Shown here one piece after another: positions 8,809 through 25,248 of a stretch of 64,000 nucleotides of DNA. Position numbers and translations under genes: made by a program. Each line of letters starts with the position of its first letter. Positions within the stretch are counted from its first letter, which is position 1. The notes under the pieces were generated by a model that saw only the letters and a list, made by a program, of their open reading frames with translations, was not told the origin of the DNA and did no database searches. Source of the DNA: Chloroflexota bacterium (GTDB lineage Bacteria > Chloroflexota > UBA11872 > VXNJ01); assembly GCA_965207915.1 (NCBI GenBank), contig OZ242304.1, positions 1,965,581-2,029,580 of the forward strand. The letters are read 5' to 3'.

Positions 8809-10185
8809 TCAGGACCGGTCGCCGGTGAATTGCTCAAGTTCGGGGGCGATCGCCGCACTGGCCGATTCAGGCAGCAGTCGGGCGATCTCGTGCATGATCG
8901 CCCAGCTGGCCCAGCGGGCCGCGCGACCGCCGCGCAGGGCAGCCGGCGGACGCAACCGGAAAGGGGGCCCGAAGCGCATCGCCACCGATTCCGGTTCGGG
9001 GCAGGCCAGTTGCGAAAGATCCAGCCGTTCCAACCCGTCAACGACCGCCGGGACAACCGGCGCTCCGGACCGCAGCGCCAGCAAGCCGGCGCCCGGATAG
9101 GGACGCCCCAGGATTCCGTCGCGGTGGCGCGTCCCTTCGGGAAAAATGCAGACCGCTCCGCCATCGGCCAGGGCCTTCAAGCCGCGCCGCAAGCCGGTAG
9201 TTTCAGCTACGTTGCGCTGAACCGGGATGGCGCGCAGGGCGTGAATTGCGTATCCGATGAGGGGCCATTCGAAAAGGGACGACTTGGCCAGAAACTGCAA
9301 CTGGCGCGGCGAGTAGTGGGCCAGGAAGTTCACGTCGGCGTTGTGGACGTGGCGGGCGGCCACGATTACCGGGCCGTGTGATGGAACGTTCTCTAGCCCC
9401 TCGAGGCGGATGGGTTCGCAATAGAGGCGCAGGTAGACATCGAAAAAGGAAGTAACGGCGGTCATGAGCAGCGAATTCGCCAACGGCCACTCCGGACGGG
9501 CCTGGGCGCCGTTGAAGGCGGCCAGGATCGCCCTGGTCACCGCCCGCGCCGACAGGGACTCGGTATCAAGGATCAATGCTCCGGGCGGGACCCGCAGGGG
9601 CGAACTGGCGCGATTGGTGTCGAAATCGTCGCGCCGCTCGATTTCGCTGCGGACTTGGGCAACGCCGCCGGCAAGCCCGGCCCCGCCGCGGTGGTCCGAA
9701 TGCAGGCGGCGCGCCCGGACCGCGGCGCTGGCCCGCAGATAAACCTTCAGATCGGCTTCGGGACAAACGGTTGTCCCGACGTCGCGGCCAAGCAGCACCG
9801 CCCCATCGTGCAAGAGCGCACGCTGCTTGGGCAAAAGCGCGGTCCGGACTGCGTCCTGGCGGGCCACCAATGGGACCGCGCGTTCGACCTGGGCCAGATA
9901 AAGATGTGCCGTCGAGGAGCGCAGCCGGGGGTCCAGCAGGCGGCCGTTGATCCGGAGCTTTGGCCGGCTGCCCGGACTCAGGTCGGCTTCGAGTTCGCGG
10001 GCTGCGTCACGCGCGGCCGATCCGTCGCGCGGATCCTTGCCCCAGCGCAGGCATTCGTAGGCGACCGCGCGGTATACCAGGCCGGTATCAATCAGGCAGA
10101 GACCCAGCCGTTCGGCGACCGCCAGTCCTACCGTCGTCTTGCCCGAACCGGACGGGCCGTCGATTGTGATGATCGGGCTGGCCAT
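8809..10185 (-). CDS. cmk: Bifunctional cytidylate kinase / 1-acyl-sn-glycerol-3-phosphate acyltransferase (Cmk-PlsC fusion)
   Basis: The N-terminal ~225 aa is Cmk (P-loop [33 protein letters not shown]). The C-terminal ~230 aa is a PlsC-type acyltransferase (HxxxxD as HVHNAD; FPEGTR). Confidence 0.8.
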   Translation of the reverse strand: MASPIITIDGPSGSGKTTVGLAVAERLGLCLIDTGLVYRAVAYECLRWGKDPRDGSAARDAARELEADLSPGSRPKLRINGRLLDPRLRSSTAHLYLAQVERAVPLVARQDAVRTALLPKQRALLHDGAVLLGRDVGTTVCPEADLKVYLRASAAVRARRLHSDHRGGAGLAGGVAQVRSEIERRDDFDTNRASSPLRVPPGALILDTESLSARAVTRAILAAFNGAQARPEWPLANSLLMTAVTSFFDVYLRLYCEPIRLEGLENVPSHGPVIVAARHVHNADVNFLAHYSPRQLQFLAKSSLFEWPLIGYAIHALRAIPVQRNVAETTGLRRGLKALADGGAVCIFPEGTRHRDGILGRPYPGAGLLALRSGAPVVPAVVDGLERLDLSQLACPEPESVAMRFGPPFRLRPPAALRGGRAARWASWAIMHEIARLLPESASAAIAPELEQFTGDRS

Positions 10186-14021: not shown

Positions 14022-15155
14022 TCAGAGGTAGTCGGCCAGCGGGGTCGCGGTCAGGGCGTGGTCGGGAATCTCGCTCGCGTGGCTGCCCTGAGCCGGGTAC
14101 TTGTAGACGTTCCCCTCGTAATTGGCCAGGGTTGCGTACTCGTCATCGAGGCTCAGCAAGCGGTTCGGAGCGACGGTCATCTTGCCGCCGCCGCCCGGGG
14201 CGTCAATCACGTACTTGGGCACGCCGAAACCGGTGATGTTGCCTTGCAGGTAATTGATGATGTCGAGACCGGCTTGGATGTTGGTGCGGAAATGATGGGT
14301 CCCCTTCACCAGGTCGGCCTGGTAGAGGTAATAGGGCTTGACCCGGATCTTGAGCAGACCCAACATCAGTTCCTTCATGACCTCGCGATCGTCGTTGACA
14401 CCCTTCAGCAGGACCGTCTGGCAGCCCAGCGGTATGCCGGCGTCGGCCAGTCTGTTGCAGGCAGTAGCGGCTTCCTCGGTCAACTCGCGCGGATGGTTGA
14501 AGTGCGTGTTGATGTAGAGCGGATGGTGTTTTTTGAGCATCTCGCAGAGTTCGGGCGTGATGCGCGAAGGCAGCACGCACGGCAGCTTGGATCCGATCCG
14601 CACGACCTCGATGCTCGGAATTGCGCGCAGCTCGGTCAGGATCCGGTCCAGGTGCTGATCCGAGAGCAGCAGCGGATCGCCGCCGGAAAGCAGGACATCG
14701 CGGACTTCGGGATGCGCGCGCAGGTAGTCGAAGACCGCCTCCATTTCCGACCAGCGCGGGACCGGGTACTTGCCGACCTTGCGTTTGCGGGTGCAGAAGC
14801 GGCAGTAGATGGCGCAGGTGTAGGTGACGGTGAACAAAACGCGGTCGGGGTAGCGGTGCGTCAGGTGCGGAACCGGCGAGTCCTCCCCGTCCTCGCCCAG
14901 CGCATCCTCCATGTAATAGGTAGGGTCGCTCAGTTCTTCGGACGATGGAATGACCTGCTTCCAGATCGGATCGTCCCTTTCCTCGATCAGGCTGGTGTAG
15001 TAGGCATTCGAGAAGAAAGGGTAGAGCTTGCGGACCGAATCGATTTCCTCGGCTTCCAGGGCGTCCACGGCGGGCGCATCCTCCCCGTGCCGCAGGCTGT
15101 TGCGCATCTCCTGCTTCCATTGCGCTACGGCTCGGGTCACGCTTGGTCCTTCCAC
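14022..15155 (-). CDS. KamA-family radical SAM enzyme (lysine 2,3-aminomutase-like)
   Basis: CAIYCRFCTRKR radical-SAM cluster motif; SPVPHLTHRYPDRVLF, GGDPLL and VRIGSKLPCVLPSRITPEL closely match clostridial KamA. It lacks the C-terminal Zn-binding CxCDxC tail of the long KamA form. Confidence 0.85.
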   Translation of the reverse strand: MEGPSVTRAVAQWKQEMRNSLRHGEDAPAVDALEAEEIDSVRKLYPFFSNAYYTSLIEERDDPIWKQVIPSSEELSDPTYYMEDALGEDGEDSPVPHLTHRYPDRVLFTVTYTCAIYCRFCTRKRKVGKYPVPRWSEMEAVFDYLRAHPEVRDVLLSGGDPLLLSDQHLDRILTELRAIPSIEVVRIGSKLPCVLPSRITPELCEMLKKHHPLYINTHFNHPRELTEEAATACNRLADAGIPLGCQTVLLKGVNDDREVMKELMLGLLKIRVKPYYLYQADLVKGTHHFRTNIQAGLDIINYLQGNITGFGVPKYVIDAPGGGGKMTVAPNRLLSLDDEYATLANYEGNVYKYPAQGSHASEIPDHALTATPLADYL

Positions 15156-15249
15156 GATCGGCGGATTGGTGGGCGCGGCTCAGGGGCAGGGCGTCCCGCC
15201 GCGCAATGTACCGCCGGTGCCCGCAATTGTCTTAAATGCCCCGGGGCGT

Positions 15250-16695
15250 TCAAAGCGGCGATTCGGGGTCCTGCGCCACCGGAGCCATCACGGCGTCGGC
15301 CATGCCGTGCAGGATCTTGGACGAGTCCGGGCAGGCGGTGGCCAATATCCCGGCCAGCTGGACGTCTTCGCCGGAATCGATGAAGTAGGGTGAAAAGCGC
15401 CCCCGCACCCGGCTATCGCGCAGCCGGTTCTGGTCCATATCGAACCATTGAACGCTGAATCTTCGGCTGGCAAAGTACGGCTGCAACACGTGCGGGCTTT
15501 GCTCGAATGCGACCATCGCCGCTTCGAGCGCATCCCCCCATTCGGGAGCCGGCACGTCGTGGCCGATCGTCACCCCGCGCGAACCCCAGGCCTGCGGAGA
15601 AAACCCGGACGGCTTGATCACCATGCGCCGTCCGCGTTGCGTGGCCCCGCAAAGGTCCCGCCAGCGGCGCACGGGCCGCCCGGCGCTGGTCAGCGGCGGA
15701 TCGATCGCCGCGAACGGGGGCAATGGGGTGGGATCGATGACCCAGGTGGGCGGCAAATGCTGCCGCAGCGCCGCAAAGGAGTCGTCACCCAGCTGGCGCT
15801 CCCAAAAGCCGGTCAGCTCGGGATGGTGGAACAGGGCCAGCAGCAGCTTTTCCTCCAGGGGCGCGCGTGGCGGAGGGGTGATGACCACCTGGCGCGCCTG
15901 CATCGCTTTGAACATCGACTCGGCCCCGGGTACGTTTTCCAGGTCGAACAATTCGAAGAACCGGTAGATCAGGTCGACCTTCGGGCCCCGCCCGGGGGCA
16001 CCAAGCCAAACGCCGGCATCGTCGAACTCCAGTTCATCCGGCCAAACCGCCCGACAGCGCAGCCCCAACCTGCACAATTCCTCGGCCAGGGCGGTCAATT
16101 CGGGGCGGTAGGCGTCGCCTTCTTCGGAAACGACGATCGCCACGAACGGATCGCCAATTCCAGCCTGGGCGACCAGACCGGACTTGAACGATTCGGCCAG
16201 GGGAGCGCCAACGCTCTCCAGTCCGGCCCGGGAGTACCCGTCGCGCAACGCCTGAAGCACTCCCAGACCGCCGGGCACCGAATCCAGTTCGGTGGCCAGG
16301 ATCGCTCCCTGCTCGGTCAGCATCAGGTCGGGCCGAATCACCAGCGGAAAGCGATTACGCAGTCGATTGCGGCGCGCCAGCGAAATCACGAATTCGGATT
16401 TGCCGGCATCCAGGAGCTTCGCCGGCCAGCCGGCCACGTTTCCGCGTACGCTGTCCTGGTAGAGGCGGCCCGCGGCGCGGTAAAAGTCCGCCAGCAGCGG
16501 ACCCAGGCGTTCGATCCGATCCAAAGTCGCCGGCGAGACGCCGATCGGTTGCGGGCTGAGCCGGAATGGCGCTCGCGATCCCTTTGCCCCGGACTCCAAG
16601 TCGCCGTATAGGCCGCTGGCCGGCAGCGATTGATCAAGGCGGGCGACCACTTCGCTGGGCGGCAGGGGGGAGGCAGCGGCGTTCGTCTGCCGCAA
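15250..16695 (-). CDS. Hypothetical protein with an ATP-grasp-like signature, possibly an amide ligase; co-operonic with the KamA-like gene
   Basis: 481 aa. RRMVIKPSGFSPQAWGSRGVTIG resembles the ATP-grasp K-loop/Gly-rich loop (vvKP..gs.G.gv). The remainder has no motif I can assign. Same strand as the KamA-like gene, 95 nt upstream of it. Confidence 0.45.
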   Translation of the reverse strand: MRQTNAAASPLPPSEVVARLDQSLPASGLYGDLESGAKGSRAPFRLSPQPIGVSPATLDRIERLGPLLADFYRAAGRLYQDSVRGNVAGWPAKLLDAGKSEFVISLARRNRLRNRFPLVIRPDLMLTEQGAILATELDSVPGGLGVLQALRDGYSRAGLESVGAPLAESFKSGLVAQAGIGDPFVAIVVSEEGDAYRPELTALAEELCRLGLRCRAVWPDELEFDDAGVWLGAPGRGPKVDLIYRFFELFDLENVPGAESMFKAMQARQVVITPPPRAPLEEKLLLALFHHPELTGFWERQLGDDSFAALRQHLPPTWVIDPTPLPPFAAIDPPLTSAGRPVRRWRDLCGATQRGRRMVIKPSGFSPQAWGSRGVTIGHDVPAPEWGDALEAAMVAFEQSPHVLQPYFASRRFSVQWFDMDQNRLRDSRVRGRFSPYFIDSGEDVQLAGILATACPDSSKILHGMADAVMAPVAQDPESPL

Positions 16696-16822
16696 TGCGC
16701 AGCGCTTTCTCGATTGAGGTTTTGGGGAGGCATGGCATTGTACGGGCCTATTTCCAAAGACCCCTCAAAATCGACCGCGCCGGCTTGACCATTAACACGG
16801 TTACTAACCTAGGGATGGCGCG

Positions 16823-17320
16823 TTGGCGGCCGGCGCGCCGCGTACGTGGCCGAACCTTGGCGGGAGGGATGAAATGCTGCTCGCGGCCCAAATACTGCTT
16901 ACGATCGCCACCCTTGGCTACAGCGCCATCCCGACGCTCGTTGACCTGGGTCCCACCCACGCAACAAACCCTTCATGGACCGGCCATGCGCGCTACCACG
17001 TGGTGTGGCAGGTGGCGAGCCTGGTGATCATGGCCCTGCTGGGTCTATTCCTGACTTGGACCGCGACCGGGCCGGGCATCAGGCTGTGGATCTCGGCCGG
17101 ACTCTGCGTTGTCGCCTACGGCGGGTTCTGGGCCGCGCTCCTGACCCGTCCGAAGTACCAAGGTATCTTGCAGGACGAGGTCAACGGTGTCCCCGAGGTT
17201 GGCTTCAACGTATTCGGCTTGAAGGCCTCGATCGACGCCAACGTGTCGCAATTTGCGCCGCTTTCGCTGATCGCCCTTATAGCGATTGGCCTGATCGCCG
17301 CCTTGCCGCCCGAGGCCTAG
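16823..17320 (+). CDS. Hypothetical small membrane protein
   Basis: 4 predicted TM helices. The more likely start is the ATG at 16874 (MLLAAQILLTIATLGYS). Divergent from the ATP-grasp/KamA operon. Confidence 0.4.
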   Translation: MAAGAPRTWPNLGGRDEMLLAAQILLTIATLGYSAIPTLVDLGPTHATNPSWTGHARYHVVWQVASLVIMALLGLFLTWTATGPGIRLWISAGLCVVAYGGFWAALLTRPKYQGILQDEVNGVPEVGFNVFGLKASIDANVSQFAPLSLIALIAIGLIAALPPEA

Positions 17321-18106: not shown

Positions 18107-18498
18107 GGGGCGGCGACCACGCACGCCCGGTTGACATTTGTCGATCCCCGATGACGACGGTCGCGATTTAGGGGCTGGTAGTTGCGCTGGTGGAATTGGC
18201 CGCCGGGGAAGGGCGGCAAATCACGAGCCATGCGACGCCCGGCAGCGGACCGCGAGCCAAGCGGAAGCTTCCATTCCGGCGAAATTTGGTGATAATTGGG
18301 GGCACGCCAGACCCCCGGCTGATTCCCCCGGGGCCTTCCCGGCCGACGCGTGATCAGACAGCCACCGCGCGACTTTGCTCGCGGAAACGTCCAAGACAGC
18401 GGTGGCAGCAATCAATACCCACCGCAAGGATTCGTTGGATATTGCCTAAAGCAGCATCCAGGCTGATTGCCTTAGTGCGGGCGAAGAACCTGGGGCAT

Positions 18499-20535
18499 AT
18501 GGCCAACGGGCCGCTGATCCGGTTGCTGCTCATCGTGCCGGCCGCGGTCCTGCTGGCGGGCTGCGAGTTCTTCGTTGCCGCGGTCGCCCCGACCCCCACC
18601 CTGGTGGGCTCGGCGTCGTCCTCCAACCGTCCGCTGGTCACCGTGGACCGAGGGACGATCGAGCAGGCCATCCGGGCCACCGGAAGGGTGGTGGCGCGCG
18701 AGCGGGAAGACCTCTATTTCGTCTCTGGAGGTCGGATCAAGTCGGTTTCGGTGCGCCAGGGCGAGATCGTCGAAGCCGGCACCCTGCTGGCCGAACTGGA
18801 GACCGGAAATCTTGAGTCCCAGGTCGAAAGTGCCCTGGAATCGTTCGAGACCGCCTCGCTGCGGGTCAAGGCTGCCGAACAGGCCCTGGCCAACGATCAG
18901 GCGAACTCGCTTCAACAGCTTCTGACGGCCCGCAACGACGTGATCCGCCGGCAAGAGCAAATCAATCTCTCGCTCAACGGCGGAGACCCCGACCTGGTCA
19001 CCTCGGCGCGAGCCCAGCTGGCGGCCGCCCAGATGGCCTACAGCAACGCCCAGACGAAACTCCAGGTGTTGCAGGCATCGCCCGCCAACATACGGTCTGC
19101 AGTCGACTTGGAGCTAAACGCCAGGCTTGAACGCCTGTCTTCGCTCCAGCTTGCGCTGCAGGACCTGGCCGCCGCCGGCCCGCCGTCCGGCGGCGAGGCG
19201 CGCGCCGAGGCGGCGCGCCGCTTGGCCGACCTGCGCAGTGCCGTGACGGTCGCCCAAGCCAACGTCCTGCTGGCACAGGAAGACCTCGATCGAATCCGCA
19301 ACGGCGCCACCGGCGAGGACCTCGAGCAAGCCCGACTGGTCTTCCGGCGCGCGGAAATCAATTACGAGAACTCGCTCGAGCGCAACTTCAGCGGCGATCA
19401 GCGCGAACAAGCCGAAATCACCTACAACCTGGCCCTGCTGGCCTACGAGCGTGCGGTCAATCCGGGCGACGAGGCCGACGTCGCCAAAGCCCGCGTAGCC
19501 CTGGACCAGGCCCGCACCCGCCTGGAGCGGGCCCGCGAATCCCTGGCCGATGTGCTGGTCGACGGCGATGAACCCGGCGCGCTTGAGCGCCTCATCGCCC
19601 AGGTGCAATCCGAATACGGCGTCAGGGTTGCCAACGCCCAGCTGGCGGTGGTGCAGGCCCAGCGATCGGTCGATGAGTCCCGCGTGGAACTCTCCAACAT
19701 CGATGCCGGCCTGGGTTCGAACGAGCAGCGCGCCGCCCAGGCGAGCTTCTCCCAGGCCAGCAACAATCTCGCCCGCGCCCAGTCCCGTCTGGCCGAACTC
19801 CTTGATCCCCCGCCGGCCGACCTGGACGTTGCCCAGAACGCGTTGGATGCGGCCATTTCCCGCCGCGACAACCTGGAGGAGCGTTACGCGCAGTTCGAAC
19901 GCAAGGAATCGCAGAAGGACATCGACCTGACGATTGCCACCAACAATTTCGACCAGGCCAGGATCCAGCTTGAACGCCTGCAGGCGCAGACCTTCGAAAA
20001 CCAGATCGTGGCTCCCTTCGGCGGGGAAATAACCTTCACCCGCGGTCGGGCCGGCGACCAGGTTCAGGCATACCAGGAAATCATCGGGATTTCCAACCCC
20101 GAAAACCTGGTGATCGAATCGCTGATACCGGAGACCGATTTCGAAAACCTTTCGATCGGTCAAATCGTCGACGTCCAGCTGGACGCATTCCCGGGCCGCA
20201 ACTTCGTGGGTACGGTTTCCTCGCTGCCGCGCAACATCGTCTCCAACACCGGCCAGACGATCAAGATTCCGGAGACCGAAATTGAAGTGGACTGGGCCGG
20301 CGCCGCGGTCGAACTGGGCATGCTGGCGCGCCTCAAGGTCACGGTTCAGGTCAAGGATGACGTCCTGAAGGTGCCGGCCGCGGCGGTGCGCCGCGTGAAC
20401 GCCCGCGAATTCGTCGAGACGATCGTCGACGGGCAGCGCCGCAGCCTGCAGGTGACCACCGGAATCGCGTCAGACACCGAAATCGAGATTGAATCGGGCC
20501 TTGAAGAGGGCATGGAGATCTACGCGTCGCCGTAG
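18499..20535 (+). CDS. Efflux periplasmic adaptor (HlyD/MFP family) lipoprotein with an unusually long coiled-coil
   Basis: ATG at 18499 (MANGPLIRLLLIVPAAVLLAGC, lipobox). The beta-barrel/lipoyl halves (VTVDRGTIEQAIRATGRVVA...SGGRIKSVSVRQGEIVEAGTLLAEL and a C-terminal MP domain) are separated by ~400 aa of Ala/Gln/Leu/Arg-rich heptad sequence. ~678 aa in total. Confidence 0.75.
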   Translation: MANGPLIRLLLIVPAAVLLAGCEFFVAAVAPTPTLVGSASSSNRPLVTVDRGTIEQAIRATGRVVAREREDLYFVSGGRIKSVSVRQGEIVEAGTLLAELETGNLESQVESALESFETASLRVKAAEQALANDQANSLQQLLTARNDVIRRQEQINLSLNGGDPDLVTSARAQLAAAQMAYSNAQTKLQVLQASPANIRSAVDLELNARLERLSSLQLALQDLAAAGPPSGGEARAEAARRLADLRSAVTVAQANVLLAQEDLDRIRNGATGEDLEQARLVFRRAEINYENSLERNFSGDQREQAEITYNLALLAYERAVNPGDEADVAKARVALDQARTRLERARESLADVLVDGDEPGALERLIAQVQSEYGVRVANAQLAVVQAQRSVDESRVELSNIDAGLGSNEQRAAQASFSQASNNLARAQSRLAELLDPPPADLDVAQNALDAAISRRDNLEERYAQFERKESQKDIDLTIATNNFDQARIQLERLQAQTFENQIVAPFGGEITFTRGRAGDQVQAYQEIIGISNPENLVIESLIPETDFENLSIGQIVDVQLDAFPGRNFVGTVSSLPRNIVSNTGQTIKIPETEIEVDWAGAAVELGMLARLKVTVQVKDDVLKVPAAAVRRVNAREFVETIVDGQRRSLQVTTGIASDTEIEIESGLEEGMEIYASP

Positions 20536-20582
20536 GCGCAACGCAGCGGCTTTGCAAATGACCGGTCGGAGTCGCTGAGGCG

Positions 20583-23441
20583 ATGCTGCTGCCGATGGTG
20601 GTCTTTGCCGCCAAACGCCTGCTGCACAAGAGCCAGCTGATCCTGGCCACCGTGTTGGGCCTGATCATTACCGTCACCCTGGTGACGGCGGTCCCGGTCT
20701 TCTCCGACGGGATGTCCGAATTCCTGCTGCAGCGCGAGCTCAAGGAACCGAGCGTTGACCGGCGCCAACCCGCCTCTTCGGTCATGCTGCGCCACTTTTC
20801 CAGGCCCGAGGTGAACGAAGCGCCGACAACGGTCGAGGAATTCCTGACCGCCGACAGCTTTTTTGCCCATCGCATCGGCCAGCTGACGGGCATGGATGAA
20901 ATCTCGCAGGTCACGTACCTGCAGACCGACGTCCATCCGGTCTTGCCATTCGAGGCCTCGCTGCAGAGCGGACGCCGCGAGCGCACCCTCGAGTACGCGT
21001 GGTTCGCCACGGCTTCCGATATCGACGAGCACATCCGGTTCCTGGAAGGTCGGGCGCCGACCAGCGAAGTCGGCTCCATCGAGGTGAACGGCGAACCCGC
21101 CATGTTGCTGGAGGTGTCGGCATCCAACAACTTGCTCGACAAGTTCGGCTATCTCGTCGGTGACCGGATCAAGTTGTTCTACACCGACCAGGACACCGAG
21201 GAGGAGCACCCGATAGCCTTCGACATCGTCGGGCGGTGGGTGCCGACCGATCCCGACAACCGCAGCTACTGGTTCTACAGTCCGATCTCGACGTTCGACC
21301 GCGGTGGATTCATGATCAATCGCGACGTCTACCTGGATCGGCTGGTCGCCACCTTCCCTGGCATCTTCTACGAGGCGACCTGGTATTCGGACTTTGACCC
21401 GGCCTCGATAAGGGCGTCGAGTTATCGGGCCGTCGCCGGAGGGTTGGTGACGCTGCGGGCCGCGACCAACCAGATCCTCCCCGGGACGAAGCTCGATTAT
21501 TCTCCGCAGGACGTGATCGTCAGCTTCAACGACAAGCTGTTCTTCCTGAAGCTGCTGCTGTTTATCCTGGCGGCCCCGGTAGTGGCGATCATCCTCTACT
21601 ACGTGAGCCTTACCGCCGGCATGGTGATCGACCAGCAGCGCAGCGAAATCGCCGTCCTCAAGAGCCGCGGCGTCGGCACCCTGCAGATCGTAGGGGTTTA
21701 CATAATCGAAGGATTGTTAGTAGCTGCGATCGCCCTGGGTCTGGGGCCGCTACTGGCCCTGGGGCTGGCTCAGATCATCGGCAAGACTTACACGTTCCTG
21801 GTCTTTACCGACCGCGAAAACCTGCCGGTGATGCTCACCCAGCAGCACTACCTCTACGCCGCCGGGGCGGTATTCCTGGCGGTCCTGGCGACCCTGGTAC
21901 CGGCGATCGGGGCGGCCCGGCTCTCGGTGGTGGAGTTCAAGCAGGATGTCTCTCGCACCCTGGGCAAGCCCTTCTACCAACGCTTTTTCCTCGACGTCCT
22001 TATCGTCGGGATCGTCATCTACGGCTACATAAACCTGCGCGAACGCGATTCGCTGCTCTCGTTCGGGCCCGGCGGCGAACTGTTCTCGGACCCGCTGTTG
22101 GTGGTGATGCCGGTGCTGTTCATCTTCGCCCTGGCCCTGCTGTTCCTACGCTTCATCCCTTACCTTGTGGCCCTCCTGGCCGCGATCGGCGGGCGCTACT
22201 GGGGAGTCGGTATACACCTCGGTCTGCGACAGATCGGCCGCAGTCCGGGCCAGTACACCAGGCTGGTCCTGCTGTTGGTGCTGACCTTTGCGCTGGGAAC
22301 GTTCTCCGCCTCGATGGCGGCGACGATCGACCGCAACATCTCCGACCGCGCCTATTTCGAAGTCGGTTCGGAGGTCCTGTTTGAGGAGACCGGTTTCTGG
22401 GACGCCGACAACGGGGTCTGGATCATCCAGCCGGCCGACTTGCATTCACGTGCCGTCGATGAGAACGGTGAACCGATGCTGGAGCAGTTCGCGCGGCTAT
22501 GGCATGACGACGACGCCCACTTCATTCCGCCGGGGCGCAACCAGGCCGACACGGTCAACGTCTACGGGGTGGATCCGATCCCGTTCGCCAAGACTGCATG
22601 GTGGCGTTCGGACTTTGCTCCCTATCACATCAATTCGATGATGAACGCGCTGGCCGGCGACGAACGCGCCCTTCTGGCCGACCGCTCCTACTTCGGCGAC
22701 CAGCTGCTGCTTCGACAGGGCGATCCGCTCACGATCCGCTTCGCGCAGCTCGATCTCGAATTCTTCATCGCCGGCTGGATCGATGATTTCCCGACCCACT
22801 ACCCCGAATCGGGCCCGTTCGTGGTCGCCAACCTGGACTACATCCACCGCAACATCGGCGAGAGCCCCTGGAACATCCTGGGGATACCGGCCGAGGGAGT
22901 CGCTGTCCCGGATATTGCCGAAAAACTCTGGGAATTGCGCATCGACCTGCTGCGCTACAACGTGACCGCCCTGACTATCCAGGACTCGCGGGCCGACGCG
23001 ACCCAGACCGGGACCTTCGGAATCCTCACGGTCGGGTTCGTGATCTCCACGCTCCTGACCCTGCTGGGATTCCTGCTTTATTCCTTCCTCTCATTTAGGC
23101 GGCGCCTCCAGGAATTCGGCGTATTGCGGGCGATGGGACTTTCGGTTCGGCAGATGATCAACCTGTTCATGTTCGAGAACGGTTTCCTCATTGGAATGGG
23201 CACCCTGGTCGGAACCGCGCTGGGAATCCTGACCGGCAACCTGTTCATCCCGTTTCTGCAGCTTTCGGCAGACCGATTCGCCGACACGCCGGCCTTCATC
23301 ATCGAAACGGCCTGGGGCGACATCGGCAAGATATACCTGGTGCTCGGAGTGGTGTTGGTGGTGGCGGTTCCGGTCTCGATCTGGATGCTGCGCCGGATCC
23401 GGATACACGAGGCAATGAAGTTCGGGGACGAGACTGGATGA
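20583..23441 (+). CDS. ABC transporter permease with two tandem FtsX/MacB-type halves, each with a large extracytoplasmic domain
   Basis: 952 aa; two FtsX-like 4-TM modules (ILYYVSLTAGMVIDQQRSEIAVLKSRGVG and FLSFRRRLQEFGVLRAMGLS), each preceded by a ~250-aa soluble domain. Confidence 0.8.
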   Translation: MLLPMVVFAAKRLLHKSQLILATVLGLIITVTLVTAVPVFSDGMSEFLLQRELKEPSVDRRQPASSVMLRHFSRPEVNEAPTTVEEFLTADSFFAHRIGQLTGMDEISQVTYLQTDVHPVLPFEASLQSGRRERTLEYAWFATASDIDEHIRFLEGRAPTSEVGSIEVNGEPAMLLEVSASNNLLDKFGYLVGDRIKLFYTDQDTEEEHPIAFDIVGRWVPTDPDNRSYWFYSPISTFDRGGFMINRDVYLDRLVATFPGIFYEATWYSDFDPASIRASSYRAVAGGLVTLRAATNQILPGTKLDYSPQDVIVSFNDKLFFLKLLLFILAAPVVAIILYYVSLTAGMVIDQQRSEIAVLKSRGVGTLQIVGVYIIEGLLVAAIALGLGPLLALGLAQIIGKTYTFLVFTDRENLPVMLTQQHYLYAAGAVFLAVLATLVPAIGAARLSVVEFKQDVSRTLGKPFYQRFFLDVLIVGIVIYGYINLRERDSLLSFGPGGELFSDPLLVVMPVLFIFALALLFLRFIPYLVALLAAIGGRYWGVGIHLGLRQIGRSPGQYTRLVLLLVLTFALGTFSASMAATIDRNISDRAYFEVGSEVLFEETGFWDADNGVWIIQPADLHSRAVDENGEPMLEQFARLWHDDDAHFIPPGRNQADTVNVYGVDPIPFAKTAWWRSDFAPYHINSMMNALAGDERALLADRSYFGDQLLLRQGDPLTIRFAQLDLEFFIAGWIDDFPTHYPESGPFVVANLDYIHRNIGESPWNILGIPAEGVAVPDIAEKLWELRIDLLRYNVTALTIQDSRADATQTGTFGILTVGFVISTLLTLLGFLLYSFLSFRRRLQEFGVLRAMGLSVRQMINLFMFENGFLIGMGTLVGTALGILTGNLFIPFLQLSADRFADTPAFIIETAWGDIGKIYLVLGVVLVVAVPVSIWMLRRIRIHEAMKFGDETG

Positions 23442-24388
23442 AAGACTTCACCAGCCACATTGAAACCGGCGAGAGTCTGGTCGTGTGCTCCGGACTGGTC
23501 AAGATCTACAAGGTCGCGGACCTGGAAGTTGTCGCCTTGCAGGGCTTGGACCTGTCCATCGGGCGCGGCGAACTCATGGCCATCATCGGCAACAGCGGAT
23601 CCGGCAAATCGACGCTATTGAACATCCTGGGCGGGCTGGACCGGCCGTCGGCCGGCAGCTGCCGGATGGGGGAATTGGACCTTGTCAACTGCTCCGAGTC
23701 CGATCTCGTCTACTACAAGCGGCATATCGCCGGCTTCGTCTGGCAGCAGAGTTCCCGCAATCTGATTCCCTATCTGTCGGCGCTGGAAAACGTCGAAACC
23801 CCGATGATCTTCTCCGGCCTTTCCGGGCGGGTGCGGCGCGATCGGGCGCGCGAGTTGCTCGATACGGTCGGCCTGGGCGACCGGATGGGCCATAACCCGG
23901 GCGAACTCTCCGGCGGGCAGCAGCAGCGCGTGGCGATTGCGGTGTCGCTGGCCAACAATCCGGACATCCTGCTGGCCGACGAACCGACCGGTGAAGTCGA
24001 CACCGAGACCGCCCACCTGATTTACGACCTGTTCCACGATCTGAACCGCGAGCGCGGCCTGACCGTGGTGGTCGTTTCGCACGACCGCGGCATCGCGAAC
24101 CAGGTGGACCGGGTGGTGGCGATCCGCGACGGACGCACGTCCACCGAGACCGTGCGCCGAATCAGCGGCGAGCACACCGACGAGGTCTCGCACGAGGAGT
24201 ACGTGATCGTTGACGACGTCGGACGCCTGCAAATCCCGCACGAACACCTCGAACACGCCGGGATCGCCGGACGCGCGGTCGTCGAATACGAAGAGGGTCG
24301 GGTAATCATCAAGTCGGCCGCCAACGGCGACGAAGAGCAGCCCCGCAACGCGCCGCGCCGGACCGGGCTATTCGGCAGGGACCGGTGA
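23438..24388 (+). CDS. ABC transporter ATP-binding protein (MacB/LolD-type NBD), subunit 1
   Basis: [41 protein letters not shown]. Overlaps the permease stop by 4 nt. Confidence 0.85.
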   Translation: MKDFTSHIETGESLVVCSGLVKIYKVADLEVVALQGLDLSIGRGELMAIIGNSGSGKSTLLNILGGLDRPSAGSCRMGELDLVNCSESDLVYYKRHIAGFVWQQSSRNLIPYLSALENVETPMIFSGLSGRVRRDRARELLDTVGLGDRMGHNPGELSGGQQQRVAIAVSLANNPDILLADEPTGEVDTETAHLIYDLFHDLNRERGLTVVVVSHDRGIANQVDRVVAIRDGRTSTETVRRISGEHTDEVSHEEYVIVDDVGRLQIPHEHLEHAGIAGRAVVEYEEGRVIIKSAANGDEEQPRNAPRRTGLFGRDR

Positions 24389-25248
24389 GCACCGAAACCG
24401 CTACCACCCTGGTGGGCCTCAAAGGCGTCTGCCGGTATTACCACGCCGGCGAGGCCAACGAGGTCCGCGCCGTCGATCGGGTGGATCTGGAAGTCAAGCG
24501 CGGGCGATTCATCACCCTGCGCGGCCGGTCCGGTTCAGGCAAGACAACGCTCCTGAACCTGGTCGGGGGACTGGACAAGGCGACCGGGGGCGAGGTTTTC
24601 TTCGACGGCAAGGCGCTCGCCTCGCTCAATGACAACCAGTTGACCGAGCTGCGCCGCCACGAGATGGGATTCGTTTTCCAGACCTTCTCGCTGCTGCCGG
24701 TGCTGTCGGCATACGAGAACGTGGAATTGACGATGCGGATCGCGGGCATGCCGGCCGGCCAGCGCCGCCAACGAGCGCGCGAACTGTTGACGTTGGTGGG
24801 TTTGCGCAGCCGCATGCACCACCGTCCGTTTGAGCTGTCCGGCGGTGAGCAGCAACGGGTTGCAATCGCCCGGGCGCTGGCCAACGACCCGACCCTGCTG
24901 ATAGCCGATGAGCCGACCGGGGCGCTGGACTCGGTGACCGGAATCGAGATCGTACTGCTTTTCCGTCGCGTCGTCGACGAACAGGGCATTACCGTGATCA
25001 TGGCCACGCACGATCCGGCGCTCTCGCAGTTCACCGACGACACCTGGCTGATGGAAGACGGACGGCTCAGTCACGCCGAAGGTCCCTTGGACCTGGATCT
25101 TCCCGATCTTGTCCAGCACGTGGAATTTGCCGAACCGCTGCTTGATGTGAATAAATCCCAGCACGATGCCGAGGAACACCTGGGCATCGCCCAGCCCGAA
25201 GCCGAACCGGCCGGCGACGACCAGTTCCGGCGGCCGGACCCCGAGTAA
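24385..25248 (+). CDS. ABC transporter ATP-binding protein, subunit 2
   Basis: [41 protein letters not shown]. Overlaps subunit 1 by 4 nt. Confidence 0.85.

Follow-up and report, generated by a model that had tools for sequence, protein, structure and literature searches.

The 64,000-nucleotide window analyzed here (positions 1,965,581 to 2,029,580 of contig OZ242304.1, from the Chloroflexota assembly GCA_965207915.1) contains two adjacent minus-strand genes that may form a β-lysine module, in which a KamA-family aminomutase would make β-lysine and a ligase of an unnamed family, hereafter X, would use ATP to build the β-lysine into a small-molecule amide. We give this reading an even chance of being correct. 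The initial annotation had recognized a two-gene cassette at 14022-16695, and both open reading frames (ORFs) are indeed found there: the 481-amino-acid ligase, with a TTG start, is encoded at 15250..16695, and its stop codon is separated by a 94-bp minus-strand spacer (15156..15249) from the start of the gene for the 377-amino-acid aminomutase (14022..15155). The chemistry and the superfamilies involved are known, but the X family and its pairing with KamA are undescribed. No paper that connects an aminomutase to an X-type ATP-grasp ligase was returned by full-text literature searches, a paper on osmoprotectants in Nitrospira does not mention the pair, and nothing useful came from the literature on sponge symbionts or on the gshA/gshB genes of Nitrospira.

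In Pfam, the aminomutase is matched by Radical_SAM and by LAM_C, the latter in its first half only. With 298.9 bits, the protein exceeds the cutoff of the KamA subfamily model TIGR00238 (199.2 bits), and it aligns with the lysine 2,3-aminomutase (LAM) of C. subterminale (2a5h) at an E value of 6e-108. None of the NCBIfam equivalog cutoffs is reached; the best-scoring equivalog model is that of AblA (TIGR03820, 443.3 bits against 525.4), followed by those of glutamate 2,3-aminomutase (TIGR04368, 393 against 650), arginine 2,3-aminomutase (TIGR04468, 343 against 600), AblA_like_2 (315 against 396), and EpmB (TIGR03821, 234.8 against 369.3). By these profile scores, the window KamA is nearer to LAM/AblA than to EpmB. 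The cysteines of its CxxxCxxC motif (C114/C118/C121) fall on LAM C125/C129/C132, K325 falls on the pyridoxal phosphate (PLP) lysine K337, and R123, D281, and D318 correspond to the lysine-binding set R134, D293, and D330. In LAM, R134 binds the α-carboxylate, D293 and D330 bind the ε-ammonium group, and K337 binds the PLP. All of these LAM residues are kept in 35 of 35 ligase-adjacent KamA homologues, so that the initial proposal of a KamA-family 2,3-aminomutase with intact cluster motif and PLP site holds, and its suggestion of β-lysine as the likely product is strengthened. Judged by these residues, the window KamA very probably turns free L-lysine into β-lysine. Because the Zn-ligand position C268 of LAM is an aspartate in 32 of the 35 ligase-adjacent KamAs, and because the window protein lacks the Cys-rich C-terminal domain together with the C-terminal portion of LAM_C, we regard these enzymes as a distinct short KamA clade. 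Three KamA homologues are longer (P0135, P0152, and P0238; 512-572 amino acids) and carry an insertion of ~150-190 amino acids between the radical-SAM core and LAM_C. Examined as possible fusions, these proteins turned out to carry nothing but this insertion, which has no Pfam match and may represent an intein, an extra domain, or an artifact of assembly.

X, by comparison, could be assigned to no named family, as the initial annotation had also concluded: the protein has no match in Pfam (at E values up to 1), NCBIfam, or PADLOC, and sequence searches of the PDB with the protein alone or with the profiles A1 and A2 gave nothing meaningful. An identical protein has been deposited from a Chloroflexi metagenome-assembled genome (MAG) as a “hypothetical protein” (P0001). 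Homologues number >5,000 at 90% clustering, none of them named and none with a Pfam domain, and at 50% identity the family comprises 2,056 clusters at E ≤1e-3, 405 of them at ≤1e-30, all annotated as hypothetical; the N-terminally extended members P0303 and P0329 have no Pfam domain either. In a 63-sequence alignment representing the diversity of the family (30% mean identity), no member reached the gathering thresholds of GSH_synth_ATP, GSP_synth, CP_ATPgrasp_1, or CP_ATPgrasp_2. Sub-threshold matches were seen to GSP_synth in 4 of the 63 (best E 4e-4, best score 19 bits against a cutoff of 29.3) and to CP_ATPgrasp_2 in 2 of the 63; they come from a few divergent members, and the window protein gives none.

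An AlphaFold2 (AF2) model of X, built from a 40-sequence alignment, is confident, with a predicted local distance difference test score (pLDDT) of 90 and a predicted template modeling score (pTM) of 0.90. When it was compared with the PDB by Foldseek, the human, yeast, and potato glutathione synthetases (GS) and the soybean homoglutathione synthetase ranked first, over the full length of the chain (E 2.6e-17 to 1e-14, TM 0.62-0.68, 12-15% identity), with the human enzyme at E 2.6e-17 and TM 0.66-0.68 over ~500 aligned columns. The next ranks were taken by fungal Cp1B, 3n6x (CP_ATPgrasp), E. coli YgiC/YjfC, GspS, and trypanothione synthetase (TryS), and all 49 matches at E ≤1e-6 lie within the circularly permuted clade of eukaryotic GS (eu-GS) and GspS. 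Within the ATP-grasp superfamily, these enzymes form part of the circularly permuted branch, and the amides that they make, via acyl-phosphates, are small molecules. On the evidence of the model, X is clearly a circularly permuted ATP-grasp protein of the eu-GS/GspS type and not of the classical RimK type, a placement with which the faint GSP_synth and CP_ATPgrasp_2 matches agree. The structure prediction thus recovers the ATP-grasp fold that had initially been proposed from a Lys/Gly-rich loop; the conclusion was correct (Foldseek E 1e-17 to 1e-14), although the loop had been thin evidence for it.

The conservation pattern within the family suggests that X is an active enzyme. Across the 63 sequences, R121, P122, D123, P141, R356, K361, G364, Q405, R433, and H463 are invariant, and E136, D138, Y196, Y244, R245, E281, E282, K283, and S363 are nearly so; with these residues in place, X looks catalytically competent. 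The human GS sequence, validated against 2hgs (100% identity), was then aligned with X by hhalign. No global alignment with eu-GS was obtained, only local, weak segments, which are co-linear (X 118-244 on GS 122-265, E 0.006; X 304-362 on GS 325-365, E 0.08). This weak mapping puts R121/D123 on GS R125/D127, E136/D138 on the Mg-binding residues E144/N146, E192 on E214, and K361 on K364; K283 was matched to K305 by motif only. The KamA-associated clade of X has the extra acidic residues E192, E199, and E248, whose counterparts in the divergent branches are H/Y/W, Q, and Y, respectively. In the same weak alignment, the three correspond to GS E214, Q220, and Y270, which hold the γ-glutamyl end of the acyl substrate. 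Such a pattern would suit a substrate of more cationic character in the KamA-associated enzymes, and it is from these acyl-site positions, weakly aligned as they are, that we tentatively favor the acyl-substrate site as the place of the dicationic β-lysine. D380 and K460 were also considered as substrate residues and rejected: the divergent branch carries them swapped, with K/R at 380 and D at 460, a pattern that points to a salt bridge rather than to contacts with a substrate.

In many genomes, X and KamA are encoded side by side. Among 97 related loci, the downstream neighbors of X were searched by tblastn with the window KamA as the query. In Nitrospirota, KamA lies immediately 3′ of X on the same strand in 31 of the 31 loci with enough downstream sequence, sometimes with a glutaredoxin-like (Grx-like) gene in between. 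KamA is likewise found downstream on the same strand in the one Nitrospina locus and in three Bacillota/Limnochordia loci, and the X-then-KamA arrangement recurs in the Chloroflexota loci L009-L012 and L035 as well as L001, L002, and L005. Taken together, order, strand, and short spacers are kept in >40 loci from at least four phyla, and a recurrence of this extent argues that the adjacency is not due to chance. The surroundings differ wholly between the groups (cytochrome c maturation genes in one case, a LacI regulator with electron transfer flavoprotein genes in another, and dCTP deaminase with GT2 and DUF2064 genes in a third), so that the conserved unit is X followed by KamA.

From these observations, we propose the following scheme. 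KamA, using its radical-SAM [4Fe-4S] cluster and PLP, would convert free L-lysine into β-lysine (3,6-diaminohexanoate); X would then spend ATP to form an acyl-phosphate and, from it, an amide bond that incorporates β-lysine, giving a β-lysyl amide or pseudodipeptide. β-Lysine would be the carboxylate that is phosphorylated, held, tentatively, by E192, E199, and E248. As no third gene is conserved, the partner substrate would be a common metabolite or β-lysine itself. The folds and families, the conserved lysine-binding residues of KamA, and the gene linkage are what the data show; that X uses β-lysine, whether as donor or as amine, and that a small molecule results are inferred. In favor speaks the analogy with the structurally closest enzymes, all of which make small-molecule amides and one of which, homoglutathione synthetase, takes a β-amino acid.

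Several observations weigh against this scheme. KamA was not found within 10 kb of X in ~25 Poribacteria loci, in 6 Latescibacterota and 3-4 Chloroflexota loci, and in one locus each of Gemmatimonadota, Dormiibacterota, and Sericytochromatia, which makes ~35 loci outside Chloroflexota; where X is unlinked, co-occurrence with KamA was verified for Poribacteria and Chloroflexota. The residue mapping onto human GS comes from weak profile alignments (E 0.006-0.08, probability <10%). Moreover, β-lysine could equally serve as the amine nucleophile, by analogy with homoglutathione synthetase, which uses a β-amino acid (β-alanine), and with GspS, which acts on the aminopropyl amine of spermidine. The expectation, implicit in the initial annotation, that the two genes are conserved as neighbors therefore stands for Nitrospirota, Nitrospina, Bacillota, and most Chloroflexota, and does not for Poribacteria, Latescibacterota, and a few others.

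It is tempting to ask whether the two enzymes might then be functionally independent, with KamA serving osmolyte synthesis or catabolism, X acting on unrelated substrates, and their adjacency being historical. The unlinked loci would be in line with this, as would the divergent branches of X, which have other partners (see below). Yet the arrangement has persisted in non-syntenic surroundings across at least four phyla, and neither an AblB-type GNAT gene nor kamDE, kdd, or kce genes lie nearby; around the window pair in particular, there is no lysine-fermentation context that would mark KamA as a plain lysine-catabolic enzyme. In addition, X and KamA co-occur even when they are unlinked. The Poribacteria KamAs are 56-59% identical to the window KamA, as near as those of Nitrospirota, and sit at housekeeping loci beside EF-G, peptidyl-prolyl isomerase (PPIase), M24 peptidase, and LeuRS genes, and in one Chloroflexi MAG a single 150-kb contig carries both, at a distance of ~118 genes, whereas in other MAGs they have consecutive accessions. 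We therefore consider independence to be decidedly unlikely.

A different division of roles is suggested by the Grx-like gene. This gene, of ~85 codons and with a CPYC motif, separates X from KamA in at least 16 Nitrospirota/Nitrospina loci (L008, L032, L044, L047, L053, L061, L063, L067, L070, L071, L075, L077, L080, L082, L086, and L087). Here, β-lysine could be the amine nucleophile, and X might join a thiol peptide (γ-Glu-Cys or glutathione) or another acid to it, yielding a novel low-molecular-weight thiol or a polyamine-like conjugate used by the Grx-like protein. The best structural matches of X are compatible with such a reaction, comprising GS, homoglutathione synthetase with its β-alanine acceptor, GspS, and TryS, and, on chemical grounds, the H2N-(CH2)3- end of β-lysine would resemble the aminopropyl end of spermidine. 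However, neither the window nor the Chloroflexota and Bacillota loci examined contain the Grx-like gene, its product scores below every NCBIfam cutoff, including those of the YruB, mycoredoxin, and Uxx-star families, and no gshA-like gene is linked to X at the loci examined. Furthermore, the human GS residues that contact γ-Glu-Cys (S149, S151, R267, and Y270) correspond in the weak alignment to P141, G143, R245, and E248 of X, such that the two serines and the tyrosine would be replaced. On balance, we hold a thiol conjugate of this kind to be unlikely. A broader speculation, doubtful but a little less so, is that X and KamA, joined in Nitrospirota by the Grx-like protein, make β-lysine part of a hitherto undescribed core metabolite with a housekeeping role in Nitrospirota, Chloroflexota, Poribacteria, and allied phyla, be it a low-molecular-weight thiol of the β-lysyl or glutathionyl type, a polyamine surrogate, or oligo-β-lysine.

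Alternatively, X might place β-lysine on a protein, for instance on the lysine of elongation factor P (EF-P), as a non-homologous replacement of EpmA, or on a translation or envelope protein. EpmB and EpmA provide the precedent of a β-lysine made by a KamA-family enzyme and ligated to a protein, the Poribacteria KamA genes reside among the translation and housekeeping genes named above, and the X family behaves like a core gene in several phyla. At one locus, from a Manganitrophaceae MAG, a gene for a 120-amino-acid RF-1-domain protein resembling ArfB/PrfH (L008:9833-10195) overlaps the KamA stop codon. On the other hand, a tblastn search of the window and of 92 loci, made with an unvalidated E. 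coli EF-P query, detected no efp gene within a distance of 10 kb; the window KamA scores 443 bits with the LAM/AblA profile but 235 bits with that of EpmB; the characterized members of the eu-GS/GspS structural clade all act on small molecules; and no conserved target or precursor-peptide gene is found nearby. A protein target is thus very unlikely in our estimation.

Besides KamA, X has further recurrent neighbors, each limited to a single phylum and none kept across phyla. In 15 Nitrospirota loci, a gene of ~500 codons stands head-to-head with X, just upstream on the opposite strand (L026, L039, L049, L052, L053, L057, L061, L065-L067, L070, L074, L077, L080, and L081). It encodes a CxxCxxCC zinc/iron domain joined to the aminoacyl-transferase domain (LPG_synthase_C/DUF2156) of MprF, has no NCBIfam match, and might act in the same pathway as X. 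A glycerophosphodiester phosphodiesterase (GDPD) gene is also among the recurrent neighbors in Nitrospirota. Neighbors of this kind raise the possibility that X decorates the cell envelope, amidating a carboxylate of a peptidoglycan precursor, a lipid head group, or a glycan with β-lysine, in the manner of a racemase with a D-aspartate ligase or of lysyl-phosphatidylglycerol. The GT2 and DUF2064 genes at some loci, the SpoIID gene in the window and in L001, and the coupling of one divergent X branch to an amino-acid racemase and of another to a preceding NTP-transferase could be read in the same way. This reading is purely contextual, though, its envelope and lipid neighbors are confined to single phyla, and X has neither a signal peptide nor a membrane-related Pfam match; we rate it as highly improbable.

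Other groups show their own arrangements. In Poribacteria, X lies between SerA and a PhyH-family dioxygenase gene, which follows ~55 bp downstream on the same strand (L022, L025, L031, L038, L040, L051, L060, L062, L076, L078, and L084). The dioxygenase is remotely similar to halogenases and ectoine hydroxylase; hydroxylation of what the ligase uses or makes might be its role. In Latescibacterota and Gemmatimonadota, a LarE gene that passes TIGR00268 is located within ~20 bp 3′ of X (L014, L019, L020, L042, L056, L058, and L088), mostly with peptide deformylase (def), PHP phosphoesterase, and QRPTase-like genes as well, and a functional link to X is not apparent. The divergent homologues of X (24-31% identity) are not beside KamA. 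One of them overlaps an upstream Asp/Glu-type amino-acid racemase gene passing TIGR00035, and three others show translational coupling with the gene for a HAD-like hydrolase of ~150 amino acids and have an NTP-transferase or OTCase gene before them (divergent loci L095:1425-3690, L093:3-2590, L094, and L096:2223-5185). Judged by these partners, the X family as a whole is associated with the supply or processing of small molecules, among them many amino acids of the non-proteinogenic kind.

Within the window, the ligase and KamA genes are presumably co-transcribed, and the promoter of the operon presumably lies in the 127 bp upstream of the ligase (16696..16822, minus strand), a region shared with a divergent ORF for a 165-amino-acid membrane protein (16823-17320). 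A consensus scan between and around both genes found no σ70 promoter and no intrinsic terminator, an absence that carries little weight in Chloroflexota. Two long antisense ORFs face KamA and the ligase, 14058-15383(+) of 441 amino acids and 15448-16611(+) of 387 amino acids; the window has a G+C content of 62-68%, and we treated both as the usual artifacts of high-GC DNA. PADLOC gave no defense-system match. The flanks are of housekeeping character. One contains PlsY, the Der GTPase, a Cmk-PlsC fusion, a thiamine pyrophosphate (TPP) enzyme, and SpoIID; the fusion is a single ORF of 458 amino acids (8809-10185, minus strand) that joins cytidylate kinase (Cmk) to a PlsC-type acyltransferase and adjoins the genes for Der and PlsY. 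The other flank contains the 165-amino-acid membrane protein, an FAA-hydrolase-family protein, and an exporter cluster of the HlyD/MacB/ABC type (18190-25248, plus strand) that is syntenic with L001/L002 and comprises an unusually long HlyD-like adaptor (781 amino acids), a MacB/FtsX permease of 952 amino acids, and two ABC ATPases. No nonribosomal peptide synthetase or polyketide synthase, lysine-fermentation, or efp genes were found in these flanks.

To our knowledge, KamA-made β-lysine has only two understood fates outside antibiotic clusters and fermentation, namely, the β-lysylation of EF-P and the formation of N-acetyl-β-lysine. If the β-lysine module proposed here exists, it would add a third, ATP-grasp-dependent route and thereby a new branch of β-amino-acid metabolism, and it would give a function to a family of ~2,000 clusters (50% identity) now annotated as hypothetical. 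Nitrite oxidizers (Nitrospirota and Nitrospina) have conserved the pair, as have major phyla of sponge symbionts, and the interest of the pair lies in its being widespread in environmentally important, poorly studied phyla as well as directly testable.

How, then, does the pair relate to systems that are already known? The closest structural relatives of X, eukaryotic GS and homoglutathione synthetase (2hgs, 1m0w, 5oes, and 3kal), have the same permuted fold over the whole chain, and X may possess equivalents of human GS R125, E144/N146, E214, K305, and K364, as far as the weak alignment and, for K305, the motif alone can tell. In contrast to these enzymes, X is bacterial and linked to KamA, shares only 12-15% of its residues with them, matches no GS model in Pfam and no PDB sequence by profile, and, by the same weak alignment, does not keep S149, S151, and Y270. 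GspS, which ligates a cationic amine, falls in the same structural clade as X along with TryS, YgiC/YjfC, and 3n6x (Foldseek E 1e-12 to 1e-9), but X remains under all gathering thresholds, lacks the amidase domain, and has a different gene context. Fungal Cp1B (9cjn), from E-64 biosynthesis, is a further structural neighbor (E 8e-13), although it is 14% identical, fungal, and acts on unrelated substrates; its published description presents it as the ligase of a pathway independent of nonribosomal peptide synthetases that condenses an acid with amino-acid and amine building blocks (PMC12568646). Negamycin, for its part, is made by a cluster with different enzymes.

With regard to pathway logic, the nearest precedents are the two systems from which the initial annotation had set the pair apart, and the distinction is upheld: X has no tRNA-synt_2 or Acetyltransf match in Pfam or NCBIfam, and the window KamA scores below the EpmB and AblA cutoffs. 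AblA and AblB, which produce the osmolyte N-ε-acetyl-β-lysine, likewise consist of a lysine 2,3-aminomutase and a β-lysine-modifying enzyme encoded by two genes. There, however, the partner is a GNAT acetyltransferase and not an ATP-grasp protein, and the window KamA, which stays under the AblA cutoff of 525, comes from a clade in which the Zn site is missing, as is the C-terminal domain. EpmB and EpmA share with the KamA-X pair the principle that a KamA-family aminomutase feeds β-lysine to an ATP-dependent ligase that forms a β-lysyl amide. The window KamA differs in scoring 235 bits against an EpmB cutoff of 369 and in having no linkage to efp, and the ligases differ in kind: an adenylate is formed by EpmA, a paralogue of class II LysRS, and X, as an ATP-grasp enzyme, would form an acyl-phosphate instead.

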